Assembly: GCA_038861545.1 (NCBI GenBank)
Contig: JAWCCZ010000004.1
Span: forward strand, 32,001 to 96,000
Length of the DNA stretch: 64,000 nt
Origin: Thermofilaceae archaeon
GTDB taxonomy: Archaea; Thermoproteota; Thermoprotei; Thermofilales; Thermofilaceae
Reading direction: 5' to 3'
In this document: positions 12,066 to 24,535 of the stretch, piece after piece
How positions within the stretch are numbered: position 1 is the stretch's first letter
How the letters are laid out: every line of letters starts with the position of its first letter
Notes under the pieces: generated by a model
Told to the model about the DNA's origin: nothing
Database searches by the model: none
Seen by the model: the letters and a program-made list of their open reading frames with translations, nothing else
Program-made: the position numbers and the translations under genes

Positions 12066-12143
12066 ACACTCTTAAGTTACTCCTTAAAATAAAAATCTTC
12101 CTCAAAGTTCTAAAGACCTCTTAGAGATGAGTGACAAGTTACG

Positions 12144-12676: not shown

Positions 12677-14176
12677 ATGCCCATCGGAAAGACTGCTCAA
12701 AAAATTCGGAAAATAGTACCAACGAGAGAAGGCAAAAATATACCTGAGGAAAGATCCTTGCAGCTACAGAATACGCTGTTAGCTAAAGAGAAAGACTGTG
12801 CTAAACAGTCCACCGAAAATCAAGTAAACGATAACGTCTATTCAACTTCATCATTTAACACACTACTTCAGCTGGGTTCTTTTACTACCACCTATCTTCA
12901 GCCAAAAGTAGAGTTAGGACAAACATTAAGTAAAAAGAAAGAAGGACTTCGTAAACCCAGAATGCCTGTAATAAAACTAAAGGAACCCTCAAAACTAGAA
13001 GGTGTTGAGGTACCTTTGCCTCCAATGTCCGGAAAAATCATACATATAACTAGTGGAGATATAGTTTTAGGTGATGGAAAAGTTAGAGTTTATTGCTTTA
13101 GTGAAGGCCCATGGGGGCCGCTGCAACCCCTTGCCGATTACCCCGAAACCCAAGAAATTTTCATTACTGAAAAATCCGGTTTACTCAACATAACTGCCAG
13201 TATTTCTGGAAAAAGATTCTTCGTAGAACTACCGCGAGAACTTATCGCCGAAAGACTCGCACAACGAATTGCCATTATGTCCGGTATGAGACTCTCGGAA
13301 AGGGAGCCGCAGGCTTCGGGAGAATACTGTGGTTGGAGGGTTAACATCTCCCTACCACAGCTTTCAGGTGGGTGGCAGATTGCAGCAGTTAGGGTAGTTA
13401 GAGTCGAACCATTCAAAGAAAATCCACTCCTCCTAGCTAGACTGTTGGCCTTAGCCGCTATGCCCTCATCTATCGCCTTTGTGGGACCACCAGGCTCTGG
13501 AAAAACTACAACTTTAATTAGAGTCTTAAAAGAAATGGTAAGATTGTGGCCTCACCTCAGGGTTAGCATTGTGGAAGAGGAACCCGAAGTTGCTGTGCAG
13601 GTACAGGGTCCATGCGTGATTTCCTATTTCTCCTTCGCTGGCCGTAAAGTTACAGATAATATACGTGCGACAAGGAGGTATGACAGACCCGATATCCTTG
13701 TGGTAGGTGAGCTCAAGGGTGAAGAAGTACCGAGCTGGTTTGAGGCGGCAGGTAGTGGTATACCGGTTTTTACAACAGCCCATAGCGTTACATTGAGTGA
13801 TCTTCTAAGACGGTTAGATTCGCTAATTCAAGCCAATGGTATCCATGGAGCGAGCGTAGTTGATGTTGTCAGAGTATGGGTTATATGTGGAAAAGTCATA
13901 GATTCGATTGGTAGTGTAAAGCGAGACATTTTAGCGGTTTATACTACCATGCCTAATGGGCTTCAGCCTATCTATAAGCCTGGGAGGTATCTTCCAGAAG
14001 ATGAATTTCTGGAATTGCTACCTCCTGAGCTACAGTTATCAATTAATAACGAATACGACTCGGTTGATGTTTACAGCAGCATTAAAGAAGCTCTTGACGC
14101 TACAATAAGTAATGTGCGGTTTGAACACTTAGATTCTATCCCCTTACAAGAGGTGCGAGGACATGAGGCTTTTTAA
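12677..14176 (+). CDS. Type II/IV secretion (TadA/CpaF/VirB11-like) ATPase
   Basis: Walker A GPPGSGKTT, Asp-box-like VEEEPEV, Walker B RPDILVVGELKGEE, TTAHS; WRVNI..P N-domain. Confidence 0.88.
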   Translation: MPIGKTAQKIRKIVPTREGKNIPEERSLQLQNTLLAKEKDCAKQSTENQVNDNVYSTSSFNTLLQLGSFTTTYLQPKVELGQTLSKKKEGLRKPRMPVIKLKEPSKLEGVEVPLPPMSGKIIHITSGDIVLGDGKVRVYCFSEGPWGPLQPLADYPETQEIFITEKSGLLNITASISGKRFFVELPRELIAERLAQRIAIMSGMRLSEREPQASGEYCGWRVNISLPQLSGGWQIAAVRVVRVEPFKENPLLLARLLALAAMPSSIAFVGPPGSGKTTTLIRVLKEMVRLWPHLRVSIVEEEPEVAVQVQGPCVISYFSFAGRKVTDNIRATRRYDRPDILVVGELKGEEVPSWFEAAGSGIPVFTTAHSVTLSDLLRRLDSLIQANGIHGASVVDVVRVWVICGKVIDSIGSVKRDILAVYTTMPNGLQPIYKPGRYLPEDEFLELLPPELQLSINNEYDSVDVYSSIKEALDATISNVRFEHLDSIPLQEVRGHEAF

Positions 14177-14411
14177 CATTTTTAAGAAAGGAGATGAGTT
14201 TGAGATTGAAATCAGGGAAGCCCGGAAGCTTGCTAAAAGAGCGCTAAAGAAGATGAAAGGTATCGAGAAAGCTACCCGGAAGTCCAAGTTCAAGAAAAAG
14301 AAGTGGGGCGAAATACTTGAATTTCTGCTTCCAGAAGAGCTTTTAGATCCTACCGATTATTCTGAAAGCGAGGTAATAGGCTCACATTTTTCCTACAATA
14401 AGGAGCTCTAG
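14163..14411 (+). CDS. Small basic hypothetical protein
   Basis: Overlaps ATPase stop, GAGGTG/GAGG SD upstream; Lys/Arg-rich. Confidence 0.55.
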   Translation: MRLFNIFKKGDEFEIEIREARKLAKRALKKMKGIEKATRKSKFKKKKWGEILEFLLPEELLDPTDYSESEVIGSHFSYNKEL

Positions 14412-15065
14412 TAATCTAACGATAGAAGCATCGAATTCTTCAGAGGTTAAATCAATGGTTTTCTTTAGAGTCTGAGGCGATAGCCTAGCTACGGCGGAAT
14501 CATATGGTATAACCACGTACTGACAACCAGTTTTCTTACAAAAGTTATCTATTACTTTCCTGTAGTATTCCACTATAGTTTGGTAATAAGGTCTAGGTTG
14601 ATTTAAGGCTATTATCACATGTTTATCACCAAATGTATAAAGAGACGTGCTAACTGAGGCCGGATTGGGTTCCGTAACAACAAGAATCGTGTCGGTAACT
14701 TCAATAAGGGGCATATACCTGCCGACAGTATCTACATCGGTTAGCGCTGGAAGATCTATAATTTTAATTTTAAATCCTAGAGATTTTACAAATTCAATTA
14801 CTTCATTTACATTCCTTATAGGTCCTCTATTTACTGATATAGTTAACTTAAGGTCCTTCACGTTTACACTCCTAAGTGATTCACTTGGACTCTCGGAAAG
14901 GTAAGGACCTGAAACTTCTCCAACTAGGTAAGAAGTTGCTCCACCGTCCGCGCTAGCATCTATGAGAAGCGTGGGTACTACAGTTGAAGAAACTAAGCTA
15001 AGAAAAGAGGCTAAAGTTGTTTTACCGGTACCCCCCTTGCTACCGCTAAACGTGGCTACTATCAT
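14382..15065 (-). CDS. ParA/MinD family ATPase
   Basis: Deviant Walker A KGGTGKTT, LLIDAS, IIDLP, VVTEP, VIPYD. Confidence 0.88.
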   Translation of the reverse strand: MIVATFSGSKGGTGKTTLASFLSLVSSTVVPTLLIDASADGGATSYLVGEVSGPYLSESPSESLRSVNVKDLKLTISVNRGPIRNVNEVIEFVKSLGFKIKIIDLPALTDVDTVGRYMPLIEVTDTILVVTEPNPASVSTSLYTFGDKHVIIALNQPRPYYQTIVEYYRKVIDNFCKKTGCQYVVIPYDSAVARLSPQTLKKTIDLTSEEFDASIVRLLELLIVGKM

Positions 15066-20185: not shown

Positions 20186-20605
20186 ATGACCAGAAGAAGT
20201 GGTGGAGTGCCAGGAATCGTGACGGTGATCATAACTATTGCATCAATAGCGGCAGCGGCGCTTGTTGCGTACTTCATGTATACTACAACTAGAAGTGCGA
20301 CTAGCCAACCGATAATAGAGGTAACCTCTGCTTACGCGAGCGGCTCTAATCTGGCTCTAACTATCAGGAACCTTGGATCCGTAGACGTTACGATTACAGA
20401 TGCTTCAATAGTCATTAGGGATATCAGTTGTGTGGCACAAAATGCAAATAAACAACTAGCTAAAGGAAGTAGTATAGTAGTATCTGCTTCTTGTAGCTCA
20501 TTAGCTTTAAGTGATGGTGACAGTGGTTACGTCACGTTGTCCGGAACCACACAAAATAATTTAGCTTTCAGCATAACTATAGGCTTCAGAGTAGTTGTAC
20601 CTTAG
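20186..20605 (+). CDS. Archaeal type IV major pilin
   Basis: Class III signal MTRRSGG|VPGIVTVIITIASIAAAALVAYF; LTIRNLGS motif; S/T-rich globular domain. Confidence 0.85.
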   Translation: MTRRSGGVPGIVTVIITIASIAAAALVAYFMYTTTRSATSQPIIEVTSAYASGSNLALTIRNLGSVDVTITDASIVIRDISCVAQNANKQLAKGSSIVVSASCSSLALSDGDSGYVTLSGTTQNNLAFSITIGFRVVVP

Positions 20606-20654
20606 CGTTGATTTAGCGTAATAAATTAATATAAGTAATTTCTTTTTTACCATA

Positions 20655-21872
20655 ATGAAATTAAATAAATGGATCCGATCCGAAGTTGATGCTATACCTT
20701 TAGCTCTTATAATGCTTTCTTCACCTCAACTACCTTTAACCACCTTAAGGGAGTTGAAAAAAGTTGGCTTTGATTACTTACCCGATCCTGAGGAACTCAT
20801 ATCCGGTTACGCTAAACTAAACTGGCTATCCGAGAGAATGAAGAAAATTCTAGATGGCGCTATTAAAGCTCAGCTTTCCGGTAATCGTAACTCTTTAGAG
20901 GAAAAACTAAAGGATATACTAGCTGAGCTTTCAACAACTCTTGAAACAACCGATCATAACATCTCTAACCTTTACAGCCTTGTTTCAACGTTTACGAGTA
21001 CAGTCCCAGTAACTATAGTAGCAACGCAAGCTCTGCTCGGTGGAGGTGGAACCGCAACTGCTCTAAGTATGGCATTCATTGGTTTAATTATTGCTATGCT
21101 AGTTGGCTTCTGGGCTTTCCCCTGGGAGTTCGGTATATCTACACCTAAGCTGCAGACTTACGCGTTGCTACTACTGATCATGCCTTCTTACCTTCTTTTT
21201 AACTGTTTCAGCATACCCAATCCCTTTCTGCTTTCTCTTGCACTTGGATCCGCGCCTAGCGCTGCTTTCCACCTGCACCACACATTAAGTGAACTCAAAA
21301 AAATGGATAAATCTAGGGAATTGATCCGCGTGGCGGCACGAGCTATAGGCAATCCTTACTTAGCACTCGCTAGAGAGAAACTTTTAAAGGATCCGGAAGA
21401 GCTGTTGAATCAGGAGTGGAAAGGCTTCAGCAAAGCTGCTACGCTGGGCCTATGGCAGGTTCTCTTGCATGGTGGTTACGAGAACCTGCAGAAGTTGGAT
21501 GATTATGTTTCTAAAGTACTAGAGTTCACTAAACGGCTACGCTCAAAGACTAGAATCTTCCTAGTGTATGCGATTATTGAAGCCGCGATAGTAGCAGCGA
21601 TTTACGCGGTGATCCTCGGCATTGAACCGCTGTTTACGGAAGGGGGAGAATGGATGATTAAAGCTGGGATCAGTATATTGGGTTTAAGAGAACTAAGAGA
21701 AAATATTGACCAGATACTTTCTCTAAATGCACTTACATTAGCGGTAGCCACTGCGAGTGCCCGCGAGGGAAGACCCCATTTGCTTACCATGTACCTCCCT
21801 CTAATCGCCGGTATTGTGTGGTTTTTCTGGCTTATCTCCTCTACGCTTACGCCATTGCTAGTGGGTGGTTAG
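20655..21872 (+). CDS. Type IV pilus platform protein (TadC/ArlJ-like, T2SS F domain)
   Basis: Two cytoplasmic helical domains each followed by TM bundles; directly behind the pilin. Confidence 0.7.
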   Translation: MKLNKWIRSEVDAIPLALIMLSSPQLPLTTLRELKKVGFDYLPDPEELISGYAKLNWLSERMKKILDGAIKAQLSGNRNSLEEKLKDILAELSTTLETTDHNISNLYSLVSTFTSTVPVTIVATQALLGGGGTATALSMAFIGLIIAMLVGFWAFPWEFGISTPKLQTYALLLLIMPSYLLFNCFSIPNPFLLSLALGSAPSAAFHLHHTLSELKKMDKSRELIRVAARAIGNPYLALAREKLLKDPEELLNQEWKGFSKAATLGLWQVLLHGGYENLQKLDDYVSKVLEFTKRLRSKTRIFLVYAIIEAAIVAAIYAVILGIEPLFTEGGEWMIKAGISILGLRELRENIDQILSLNALTLAVATASAREGRPHLLTMYLPLIAGIVWFFWLISSTLTPLLVGG

Positions 21873-22235
21873 GTGAAAGTTGATGCCGTTGTAACAATTT
21901 TCACAGCTGTATTAGCAGTAACGTTAATTCTAACTGCTTATTCTAAATACAATTCACTACAAGTTGAGGCCTACAACTGTTATGGAATAGCTCAATATAT
22001 AGCTAAGCATATTGCAAGAAAACTGGTTGAAGGAGAATCTCTTAATCTTGCTTCTTTGAAGGGGTGGGAAGTCTACATTTACTATTCCAACGGTACTGTA
22101 TGCCACTACGCGCTTAACATAATCCTGTGTGAACATGTAAATAACTTTAAACCTCAAAGCAAGTATAGGTGTTACACGTACTTCCTCGCTAGCGATAACT
22201 CTCCACAGCCCGTACTAGTAGAGGTGAGGGGATGA
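21873..22235 (+). CDS. Pilin-like protein, N-terminal TM
   Basis: MKVDAVVTIFTAVLAVTLIL N-terminus; abuts the TadC-like stop; C-terminal CYTYF..VLVEV similar to the 10710-11039 protein ending. Confidence 0.6.
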   Translation: MKVDAVVTIFTAVLAVTLILTAYSKYNSLQVEAYNCYGIAQYIAKHIARKLVEGESLNLASLKGWEVYIYYSNGTVCHYALNIILCEHVNNFKPQSKYRCYTYFLASDNSPQPVLVEVRG

Positions 22236-22248
22236 ATGTACCCAGATT

Positions 22249-22284
22249 TGGGTCTTTAGACCCATTAATGGGTCTAAAGACCCA
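22249..22284. repeat. Perfect 36-bp palindrome made of two 16-bp palindromic units (putative parS-like centromere/operator)
   Basis: TGGGTCTTTAGACCCA-TTAA-TGGGTCTAAAGACCCA equals its own reverse complement; extra half-site ACCCA at 22240-22244. Confidence 0.92.
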
Positions 22285-22330
22285 GCATTGATGCAAACCT
22301 TCATAAGCAAGTATAGGAAAAAGAGGGGAA

Positions 22331-22663
22331 ATGAGCGAGTGTGATCCAAGCTTAATTACACGTTCACTGCTTGAAGAGGGAATGTACCAGCACATTGCAG
22401 TTCTGGTTCTTCTTTATAGGGAGAAAAATAAAAATAAAGATGAAATCATGATGAGTGACCTAAGGTATTTGCTTGGGAGTGGAAAATATCTTGCAAGCAA
22501 TAGGTATGCCGAATCAATAGTTAAAGATTTAAAAAATTTAGGTTTATTAAACGAAAAAAAAGTTAAAAAATTTAGATTTTTAAGTTTGACAAGATGTGGT
22601 GAGGAGGTTTCTAAACTATTAAATAATTTGATAGAGGATGTTGAACGATCTTCAAACCCTTAA
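22331..22663 (+). CDS. Winged helix-turn-helix DNA-binding protein (AspA/PadR/MarR-like)
   Basis: IVKDLKNLGLLNEKKVKKFRFLSLTRCGEEV wing motif; directly upstream of ParB. Confidence 0.75.
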   Translation: MSECDPSLITRSLLEEGMYQHIAVLVLLYREKNKNKDEIMMSDLRYLLGSGKYLASNRYAESIVKDLKNLGLLNEKKVKKFRFLSLTRCGEEVSKLLNNLIEDVERSSNP

Positions 22664-22687
22664 GGGGAAAGTTTTAATAAGTTCGTT

Positions 22688-23608
22688 ATGTATTTAATAC
22701 TCATGGAACAGGTAACCTTTATACCTTTAGATAAGTTAGTGCCTTCATCAGTTAACGTGCGAGTATATGTTGACCAGCTAAGGGTCCGTGATTTAGCAGA
22801 GAATATCTCGGTAAATGGACTCCTCCACCCTTTGGTAGTGAGGCCAGAGGGGAAAGTTTACGGGATAATCTGCGGGCGGATGAGGTTCGAGGCAATAAAG
22901 TTGCTGCATGAAGAAAGCCCTGAAATCTTTACGAAACTATTCTCAAACGGGGTTCCATGTTTTGTTAAAGAGCTTTCTGATAGAGAAGCTGTCGAATTAT
23001 CTCTCAGTGAAAACCTGCGTCAGAACAATCTAACACCTGAGGAAGTTGGTAGAGCAGTAGCCAGACTTTACGAGCAAGGGCTTGAGGAGGAAGATATTAG
23101 AAGGAGAGTGCAGCTACCTTTAGAGGATATTAAGAGATTTGTGAGGCTCTATGCGAGGCTTCGAGAAATTACGCCATTCACTGCAGAATCGAGGCCCGGT
23201 AGACCTTCACCGAGGAGACGTAGGGTAAGCAGAACCGGTATGGAGAAAGTTGTCCGTGTAGTGGAAAACCTGGAAAGACAAGGATTGGTGGAGAAGCCGG
23301 AGGAGGTTACCAGGAAACTTGCTGAAATAGCTTCTGAAAAAAAGCTGAGTACAAGTGAACTTGAGATACTGGCGCATAAGCTGCGCGAAAAGCCAGAGCT
23401 AGTGAGAAAACCGGAAGAACTGAGCAGATTAGCGGACGAGATAGCTGGTGAAGAGATGGTTGAGCGAATAGTATTGCTGAGGAGAAAGGTGATAGACGAT
23501 GTTAGCGAGTATGCAAAACTTAAAGGATTAACTTTCAACGAAGCGGTTAACGAGCTTCTCGAACGCGCTTTATCCCGAATACGCCATGAGCAGTTTAGCG
23601 TTCACTAA
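22688..23608 (+). CDS. parB: ParB/RepB/Spo0J family protein with C-terminal RHH-like domain
   Basis: NVR, GLLHPLVVRP, GRMRFEA (GxxRxxA), SENLRQNNLTPEE; C-terminal strand-helix-helix pattern. Confidence 0.85.
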   Translation: MYLILMEQVTFIPLDKLVPSSVNVRVYVDQLRVRDLAENISVNGLLHPLVVRPEGKVYGIICGRMRFEAIKLLHEESPEIFTKLFSNGVPCFVKELSDREAVELSLSENLRQNNLTPEEVGRAVARLYEQGLEEEDIRRRVQLPLEDIKRFVRLYARLREITPFTAESRPGRPSPRRRRVSRTGMEKVVRVVENLERQGLVEKPEEVTRKLAEIASEKKLSTSELEILAHKLREKPELVRKPEELSRLADEIAGEEMVERIVLLRRKVIDDVSEYAKLKGLTFNEAVNELLERALSRIRHEQFSVH

Positions 23609-23613
23609 ACTGC

Positions 23614-24450
23614 GTGGTTTTCTTGGCCAAAGGTGTCGAGTTTCTATTAGAATTGCTAGACAATGGAAGGCAGCTCACAATAATAGGATTACCGGGAGCC
23701 GAGCGAGCTGCTTTCTTATCTTCGATTATTCAAGCAGCATTTAGCGGTAAGTATGACATATTAGTGCTTGACTGGTACGGCAACCTTGCTGGATTAAACC
23801 TCCCCTCAGCAGGCTTCGCTCTACCCTACACCGCTATCCGCCCATACATCCATCGTGCTCTTTCAACGCCACCAGATCTGCGATCAAGCTCTGCAACTTT
23901 GGAGGCTGTAATAACTGAATGCGTCTCTGAAGCGACAAATTTGCAGCAAGCACTTTCAAGCCTATTAACTAAAAGTAGTGTAAACCCTGCGTCAAAGCTT
24001 GCATATTTAAGATTCCAGAGCATTTTGGCATACATTTCAGATATTGAAAACATGCAAACACATGCTTACGTTGATCTATCAAAAATACCTATTTTGGTTA
24101 GAGGCGTGATGCTACAGCTGTGGATAGCCTTCGCTCATCACCTTCTCTTAAGCAACCGACCGCTTAAGAAACAACTACTCGTGGTTGAGGAGGTGGGACG
24201 GGCACTTAGAAAAAGTGTATGGGTATGGGACTTAATCGATGAGATGACAGTGCGTGGAGTACGTTTAATATTAACTGACCAATACGTCAGAAGATCGTAC
24301 CTTAACTCTGTACTGGTGATTGTAAACATGAGCAACGAGACCCTTTACTCTACTATGCGATTTAGGATCCAGCTACCCATGATACCTAAGAGAACTGGTG
24401 AAGCAGTAGTAGTCGATGGAGCGGAACATTACACCGTACACTTCAGTTAG
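23614..24450 (+). CDS. Degenerate (probably inactive) HerA/VirB4-like P-loop protein
   Basis: TIIGLPGAERAA in place of Walker A, VLDWYG, LLVVEEVG, RGVRLILTDQ, GEAVVV. Confidence 0.65.
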   Translation: MVFLAKGVEFLLELLDNGRQLTIIGLPGAERAAFLSSIIQAAFSGKYDILVLDWYGNLAGLNLPSAGFALPYTAIRPYIHRALSTPPDLRSSSATLEAVITECVSEATNLQQALSSLLTKSSVNPASKLAYLRFQSILAYISDIENMQTHAYVDLSKIPILVRGVMLQLWIAFAHHLLLSNRPLKKQLLVVEEVGRALRKSVWVWDLIDEMTVRGVRLILTDQYVRRSYLNSVLVIVNMSNETLYSTMRFRIQLPMIPKRTGEAVVVDGAEHYTVHFS

Positions 24451-24459
24451 CAAATTATA

Positions 24460-24535
24460 TGGCGGGCCCGCCGGGATTCGAACCCGGGATCTCCGGCTTA
24501 GGAGGCCGACGCCTTTCCAGCTAGGCCACGGGCCC
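24460..24535 (-). tRNA. tRNA-Arg (anticodon CCT), CCA encoded, no intron
   Basis: GGGCCCGTGGCCTAGCTGGAAAGGCGTCGGCCTCCTAAGCCGGAGATCCCGGGTTCGAATCCCGGCGGGCCCGCCA cloverleaf. Confidence 0.98.

Follow-up and report, generated by a model that had tools for sequence, protein, structure and literature searches.

A perfect 36-bp palindrome made up of two 16-bp dyads lies immediately upstream of a gene cassette for a winged-helix protein and a ParB homolog in the archaeal DNA analysed here (a stretch of 64,000 nt, referred to as the window), and is kept in a related genome more closely than the rest of the intergenic gap that contains it. We consider it about an even bet (probability roughly 0.5) that this element is an operator or a centromere-like nucleation array bound by the winged-helix protein in the manner of AspA from pNOB8, and that it would also engage ParB and ParA and set expression of the operon, a reading that draws on the DNA and on analogy. 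We infer here the identity of the binder, the recruitment of ParB and the role of the element (operator, centromere-like or both). A previous reading of the same DNA, made from the letters without database searches (hereafter the sequence-only reading), had proposed a parS-like centromere or operator. The selective conservation of the element, its position before a conserved promoter-like block and the 19-20-bp repeats found in orthologous loci uphold that proposal in its either/or form, whereas, by sequence alone, operator and centromere-like anchor are inseparable from each other and from a mark for DNA handling.

Two dyads form a perfect palindrome that occurs once in the genome

The repeat finder and direct reading both placed the palindrome at 22249-22284 of the window, with two arms of 18 nt each (22249-22266 and 22267-22284) that are 100% complementary and separated by a spacer of 0. 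This reproduces the two 16-bp inverted repeats at a 20-bp period described in the sequence-only reading. The palindrome can be divided into two 7-2-7 dyads with the arrangement TGGGTCT-NN-AGACCCA. Site 1 (TGGGTCTTTAGACCCA; TGGGTCT-TT-AGACCCA) covers 22249-22264 and site 2 (TGGGTCTAAAGACCCA; TGGGTCT-AA-AGACCCA), its exact reverse complement, covers 22269-22284, with a 4-bp TTAA spacer (22265-22268) between them at the centre of the palindrome. The upstream ACCCA half-site, also described previously, is present at 22240-22244. It precedes the TGGGT of site 1 by 4 nt, which keeps the 20-bp register, and corresponds to the right arm of a third, degenerate site, one that overlaps the stop codon of the preceding 120-aa gene.

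Perfect palindromes with arms of at least 18 nt are expected by chance ~2e-5 times in the 1.63-Mb genome, which excludes a chance origin for the 36-bp element, the third-longest perfect palindrome of that genome. Elsewhere in the genome, outside the window, we noted perfect palindromes of 50 bp (C3:214605-214654), 46 bp (AT-rich; C5:93173-93218) and 34 bp (C4:135581-135614), as well as a 36-bp palindrome with a 4-nt loop (C4:191245-191280). Neither ParB nor a close winged-helix paralog is encoded beside any of these four.

The array is single. A scan of the whole window and the 1.63-Mb genome gave no second copy of the dyad 16-mer with 0 or 1 mismatch, copies with two mismatches were not commoner genome-wide than those of a reversed control, and the heptamer half-site was not enriched in the genome (131 observed, about 172 expected). 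The GGGTCT and AGACCC hexamer half-sites were likewise absent from every other intergenic gap of the locus. A degenerate copy (12105-12120) had been reported before the pilin-like operon promoter. This copy is mismatched at 5 of the 14 specified positions and is not kept in the same-genus genome described below, and 81 16-mers of the window have exactly five mismatches (99 have five or fewer). Because it is absent from that genome and 99 window 16-mers are as close or closer, we rejected it as a chance match.

The dyads are conserved upstream of a promoter-like block

Between 20186 and 24450, all genes are on the plus strand, and the palindrome lies within their sole sizeable gap (95 bp), 47-82 nt before the ATG (22331) of the winged-helix gene. 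This gene (P0001, 110 aa; 22331-22663, plus strand), assigned by the AF2 fold of its product and its adjacency to parB, ends 24 nt before the parB gene (P0002, 306 aa; 22688-23608, plus strand), which was recognized by Pfam ParB_N and Spo0J matches and is followed by the third gene of the cassette (P0003, 278 aa; 23614-24450, plus strand). A tRNA-Arg(CCT) on the minus strand (24460-24535), 9 nt after the P0003 stop codon, is at the right edge of the locus.

The conservation footprint rests on G001, the only same-genus genome compared, whose ParB is 88% identical. G001 carries the palindrome at the equivalent position with two substitutions (34/36 identical), compared to 31/46 identical positions for the remainder of the 95-bp gap (Fisher p = 0.003); the flanking genes are 76% (upstream 120-aa gene) and 82% (winged-helix gene) identical. 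The two substitutions fall in the last base of site 1, which is thus 15/16 identical, and in the spacer (TTAA to CTAA), while site 2 is identical at 16/16 positions. The region of the ACCCA half-site (TACCCAGAT) is conserved at 8/9 positions. The location of the substitutions indicates that the two dyads are kept and not the centre of a large hairpin, and, as judged from this alignment, selection is acting on the dyads. The sequence-only reading had allowed for an assembly fold-back artefact, which is excluded by the presence of the element, with its two substitutions, in an independent genome. It had also looked to conservation upstream of orthologs, and this extends from G001 to periodic sites in part of the more distant loci (see below).

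The block AAACC TTCATAAG CAAG (22295-22311, plus strand) is a putative BRE/TATA of the winged-helix/parB operon, given its conservation in G001 and likeness to orthologous loci. The block begins 11 bp downstream of site 2; the TATA-like core within it is ~24-31 nt before the ATG, and the dyad array ends 15 bp upstream of this conserved core. Within the block, the promoter-like TTCATAAGCAAG (22300-22311) is conserved at 12/12 positions in G001 and resembles AAAGCTTATTAG, the BRE/TATA at the equivalent position in loci of the g9 type (see below). TTCATAAGCAAG is a plausible TATA of the operon, in agreement with the BRE/TATA previously suggested at ~22300. We also noted an exact 13-bp direct repeat, AAGCAAGTATAGG, with one copy in the 120-aa gene (22157-22169) and the other overlapping the putative TATA region (22305-22317). 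In G001 the copies have diverged (AAGCAGATATAGG and AAGCAAGCGTAAG) and no longer match each other, and the repeat is therefore probably due to chance.

The cassette encodes a predicted winged-helix protein and a Spo0J-like ParB

P0001 gave no Pfam or NCBIfam match. Its AF2 model (pLDDT 92) shows a wHTH with a long C-terminal helix, and on the basis of this model we are confident in predicting a wHTH fold of the dimer type. The best structural matches (Foldseek, VIA) were MarR/RosR/PadR/HxlR/TubR-type and MepR wHTH proteins (Z 11-13). AspA was not among the best 50 structural matches listed, which does not exclude homology. When the P0001 family profile was compared with the PDB, AspA chains were matched at a borderline E of 0.02-0.03, TubR was also weakly matched, and other wHTH proteins scored better (6aht, 1.5e-5; AF1382, QsrR and F-93). 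The PLSDB plasmid collection contained no P0001 homolog, and matches to ParB in that collection were only distant and bacterial.

P0002 is the only ParB in the genome. It matches Pfam ParB_N (1.2e-11) and, across residues 8-155 spanning the N-domain and HTH, Spo0J (1vz0; 7e-17 with the protein and 2.8e-25 with the profile); it also aligns to Noc, through residue 155 or beyond. The CTPase-fold N-domain and the HTH are present, with the GxxRxxA box as GRMRFEA and the ENLRQ box as SENLRQN. Of the three GERRxRA arginines, only one is retained, the score for TIGR00180 (54.3 bits) is under the cut-off of 58.45, and the N-terminus (MYLILMEQVTFIPL) has no LG[KR]GL ParA-binding motif (motif as given in 10.1101/2025.10.10.680097). 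The remainder of the protein consists of a basic, disordered linker with an invariant AT-hook-like PGRP, a helical middle and a tail, which forms a coil and two helices in the AF2 monomer, a pattern that fits a ribbon-helix-helix (RHH). The pNOB8 ParB chain was not among the sequence matches of P0002 or its profile. A word-based homolog search returned the query protein itself and the G001 ortholog only, and a scan of metagenomes queried with the single ParB protein gave no match.

The third protein, P0003, has a degenerate Walker A (GLPGAERA) and a Walker-B-like LLVVEE, and gave no Pfam or NCBIfam match; its homologs come after ParB in g9-type loci. Downstream of parB in G001 (L006), we detected two partial tblastn segments of P0003 (residues 104-234) and no full-length ORF. 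The G001 homolog, as read from these segments, may be a pseudogene.

A ParA/MinD-like ATPase (227 aa) is encoded at 14382-15065 on the minus strand, with a weak match to CbiA and weak ParA/MinD NCBIfam matches. Homologs that are 52-56% identical are found directly beside the winged-helix/ParB pair in relatives, and this ATPase is presumed to be the third partner of the two proteins. That ParA is beside the pair in relatives and ~7 kb away here indicates that the locus was rearranged internally in this genus. The intervening ~7 kb, which encodes 1123-aa and 513-aa proteins on the minus strand and the pilin, p405 and p120 on the plus strand, is common to G001.

Periodic sites are found in part of the orthologous loci

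ParB relatives from related genomes and metagenomes gave a family set of 66 loci. The winged-helix gene adjoins parB in almost every locus for which there is upstream sequence, and the ParA gene is adjacent in many. Two layouts are seen: type A, with ParA on the minus strand next to wHTH-ParB-P3 on the plus strand, and type B, with wHTH on the minus strand next to ParB-ParA on the plus strand. For three loci (L057, L056 and L059), the region between the divergently oriented winged-helix and ParB genes, beside the winged-helix promoter, contains three 15-bp dyads, GGGCTCT-N-AGAGCCC, with a period of 19 bp; their architecture and arm sequence are close to those of the window element. Sites of the type GGTCT-TTG-AGACC are found at L068. 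In the large g9 group, whose recognition helix is AQYNWT, G[AT][AG]GTA is repeated up to three times at a 19-bp period, and the third or last repeat abuts or overlaps the AAAGCTTATTAG-type BRE/TATA. L009 has repeats as well as its own perfect 36-bp palindrome, unrelated in sequence, that is formed by two imperfect dyads 19 bp apart.

Using a crude measure of periodicity (15-mers at offsets of 18-22 bp in 28 non-redundant loci), we detected a significant signal in six of the loci compared to 1.4 expected (binomial p = 0.002). No periodic array was detected by this crude test in 22 of the 28, many of them type B. A search for a parS-like motif common to the g1 and g9 loci gave only palindromes that stem from conserved codons of the parB gene itself. 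For loci of a more distant family, with ParB on the plus strand, perfect palindromes of 28 bp (L014:2381-2408) and 23 bp (L015:2408-2430) were seen immediately downstream of parB, and one of 26 bp (L016:1136-1161) immediately upstream. These may be equivalent sites or terminators.

Site sequence varies with the winged-helix recognition helix

Across the family, the repeat hexamers are specific to groups defined by the winged-helix recognition helix. The HTH helix of ParB ([ED][ED]IKRFVRLYARL) is identical in the g1 and g9 groups, whose repeats differ (GGGTCT versus GAGGTA/GTAGTA), and the RHH-like strand of ParB (VERVVLL) is conserved across the family. The variation of the motif with the winged-helix helix, with one ParB HTH helix in both g1 and g9 and a conserved RHH-like strand, points to the winged-helix protein as the specificity determinant. 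Together with the analogy to AspA in pNOB8 (PMC5120986), these sequences are suggestive of a winged-helix protein that sets site specificity. The motif groups are also phylogenetic clades, however, such that the covariation with the winged-helix protein could be mere shared descent. Judging from its sequence, ParB could contribute as well, with the HTH, the RHH-like tail and the AT-hook-like PGRP linker each a candidate reader of the sites. In g9, a single recognition helix is associated with two repeat variants, GAGGTA and GTAGTA, and this observation, along with the combination of repeats and palindrome at L009, suggests that more than one reader may be involved.

We favor the model of an array bound by the winged-helix protein. 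With a 20-bp spacing, both dyads and the half-site would face the same side of the DNA, and winged-helix dimers could occupy all three. If these dimers behave as AspA does in pNOB8, they would nucleate a larger assembly in which ParB and, through it, the VirC1-like ParA ATPase are engaged. As 11 bp separate the end of the array from the putative BRE, and 15 bp separate it from the TATA-like core, expression of the winged-helix/parB/P3 operon from its own promoter would also be set or tuned by this complex. Against this model, the window array sits upstream of the putative TATA and not over it, which departs from the classic position for an archaeal repressor.

Bacterial parS sites are dyadic and 16 bp long, the size of each dyad here, and the array adjoins the gene for the sole ParB of the genome, a protein that aligns to Spo0J and Noc over the N-domain and HTH and keeps GRMRFEA and ENLRQ. 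These features fit a true parS, for which each dyad would be recognized by a ParB dimer through its HTH, a CTP-dependent clamp would slide off the site, and the winged-helix protein would act as a co-regulator. We think this unlikely given that g1 and g9 differ in their repeats and yet share one ParB recognition helix, that one of the three GERRxRA arginines is kept, that the TIGR00180 score is below the cut-off (54.3 versus 58.45 bits) and that LG[KR]GL is absent.

It is standard for wHTH regulators to have dyads at their own promoters, as is seen for P0001, and the closest folds are MarR, RosR and MepR. Along with the presence of one array in the genome and the overlap of the third g9 repeat with the BRE/TATA, this would be consistent with a plain operator through which a MarR/PadR-like repressor or activator regulates its own gene, with ParB merely co-transcribed and having no partition or DNA-handling role. 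The linkage between the winged-helix, ParB and ParA genes, however, is kept across several families in two gene orders, which argues for a joint function beyond co-transcription, and a set of two or three sites spaced two helical turns apart is more characteristic of partition sites or iterons than of a lone operator. The operator explanation therefore seems distinctly unlikely to us.

Also quite improbable, from what can be read in the sequence, is a more specific proposal, in which the array would be the single chromosomal loading site of the winged-helix/ParB/ParA (VirC1-like) module in a Ted-like apparatus derived from conjugation. It would act as an archaeal "transfer centromere" or oriT analogue that marks chromosomal DNA, or tethers it to the channel, for cell-to-cell exchange and not for segregation.

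An oriT-like or cruciform site that marks or processes chromosomal DNA for the neighbouring Ted/Ced-like apparatus would be in keeping with the genes of the locus (VirB4/HerA-like ATPase, T2SSE ATPase, pilins and VirC1-like ParA), with the VirC1-like function proposed for the Ted ParA (PMC9905601), and with the strong fold of the palindrome as a single strand (-19.2 kcal/mol, z = -7.9; a stem of 16-18 bp is possible). The cruciform origin of transfer suggested as an alternative in the sequence-only reading is nevertheless weakened by the relatives, whose same-orientation tandem dyads or direct repeats form no long hairpin. In addition, the palindrome centre differs in G001, and the locus proteins that were scanned, several large ones of which matched nothing, gave no relaxase-like Pfam domain, leaving this explanation very unlikely. 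Although the genes from 20186 to 24450 are all in the same orientation with the palindrome in their only 95-bp gap, and a stable 16-18-bp stem could form, an RNA hairpin that terminates or processes read-through from the pilin/p405/p120 genes is extremely unlikely, given that no T-run follows the palindrome when archaeal termination uses oligo-T tracts and not hairpins, that Rfam returned nothing above threshold for the palindrome (the sole match being a sub-threshold miRNA hairpin), and that orthologous repeats sit between divergent genes, where read-through does not exist.

Comparison with known partition and DNA import systems

The AspA-ParB-ParA system of pNOB8 (Sulfolobus) has a 23-bp palindromic centromere and a ParB of 470 aa with a CenpA-like C-domain (PMC5120986). 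As in pNOB8, a small wHTH gene is directly upstream of parB, a palindromic site is upstream of the wHTH gene and ParA is a third partner, and both systems are crenarchaeal and linked to conjugation-type genes. The differences are that the similarity between P0001 and AspA is borderline (E 0.02-0.03), that the window ParB is a 306-aa, Spo0J-like protein with its own HTH and an RHH-like tail, and that two or more tandem 16-bp dyads take the place of the single 23-bp palindrome. Further, the gene after parB is P0003, with ParA encoded 7 kb away on the opposite strand (divergently or after parB in relatives), and the cassette is chromosomal, inside a Ted-like/pilus locus. Thus, of the AspA analogy drawn in the sequence-only reading, the fold, the gene order and the position of the site stand, whereas homology is borderline and the Spo0J-like ParB with its own HTH departs from the pNOB8 ParB.

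The window system is similar to bacterial ParABS in having a 16-bp dyad and a ParB with a CTPase-fold N-domain, GxxRxxA, ENLRQ and an HTH. It differs in the extra winged-helix partner, the degenerate arginine box, the lack of an N-terminal ParA-binding motif, the RHH-like C-terminus instead of the usual dimerisation domain and the presence of one array only. Palindromes upstream of an archaeal ParA-type cassette are also known for SegB, whose imperfect palindromes are found upstream of segAB on the Sulfolobus chromosome and for which the role as centromere or operator is similarly ambiguous (PMC5120986; PMC8682754). SegB, compared here by description, differs from the window system in that it is without the ParB fold and without a winged-helix adaptor.

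The locus resembles the Ted and Ced import systems of Thermoproteales and Sulfolobales (PMC9905601) with respect to the VirB4/HerA-like ATPase, the small membrane or pilin-like proteins and the VirC1/ParA-like ATPase, and differs in also having a type IV pilus set, with a T2SSE ATPase and a UpsA-like pilin. The Ted description names ParA; ParB or wHTH have 0 occurrences in it and no cis site is given (PMC9905601). The palindrome would supply the missing cis element, as a short, unique and conserved DNA target that can be tested in vitro even though the organisms are uncultured or genetically intractable. At stake is whether archaeal DNA-exchange machines handle DNA with partition-type proteins, as the Ted paper proposed for the VirC1-like ParA (PMC9905601).

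The cassette is part of an accessory pilus and VirB4/HerA locus

A 2025 survey considered archaeal chromosomal ParA-ParB pairs to be probable contamination (10.1101/2025.10.10.680097). In contrast, the Spo0J-like ParB, the ParA homolog and the winged-helix protein studied here make up a conserved module found in complete or near-complete genomes of several related families, and invariably within the one pilus plus VirB4/HerA locus. For nine genomes, drawn from five families, the cassette belongs to the same locus of roughly 20 kb, which also encodes ParA, the T2SSE ATPase, a UpsA-like pilin, p405, small membrane proteins, two very large proteins and the VirB4/HerA-like ATPase. The GH5 and DEAD-helicase flank of the locus is syntenic in another genus.

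Among the related genomes compared (G001-G022), ParB and a close p405 ortholog occur in exactly the same nine members of the host's family, and both are missing from five genomes of a single genus, of which four are complete or nearly complete. This perfect co-occurrence, together with the joint absence, suggests that the locus is an accessory and dispensable, yet chromosomally stable, Ted-like/pilus unit. We also considered an integrated element and obtained no support for this possibility: no integrase domain was found in the proteins scanned, there was no flanking direct repeat with an exact seed of at least 14 nt despite the tRNA-Arg, and the GH5/DEAD-helicase flank is syntenic. With respect to the pilus genes, the pilin (20186-20605) shows weak similarity to UpsA (NCBIfam, 1e-4) and the T2SSE ATPase is encoded at 12677-14176, such that one locus combines a pilus set of the Ups-like type with a Ced/Ted-like channel.
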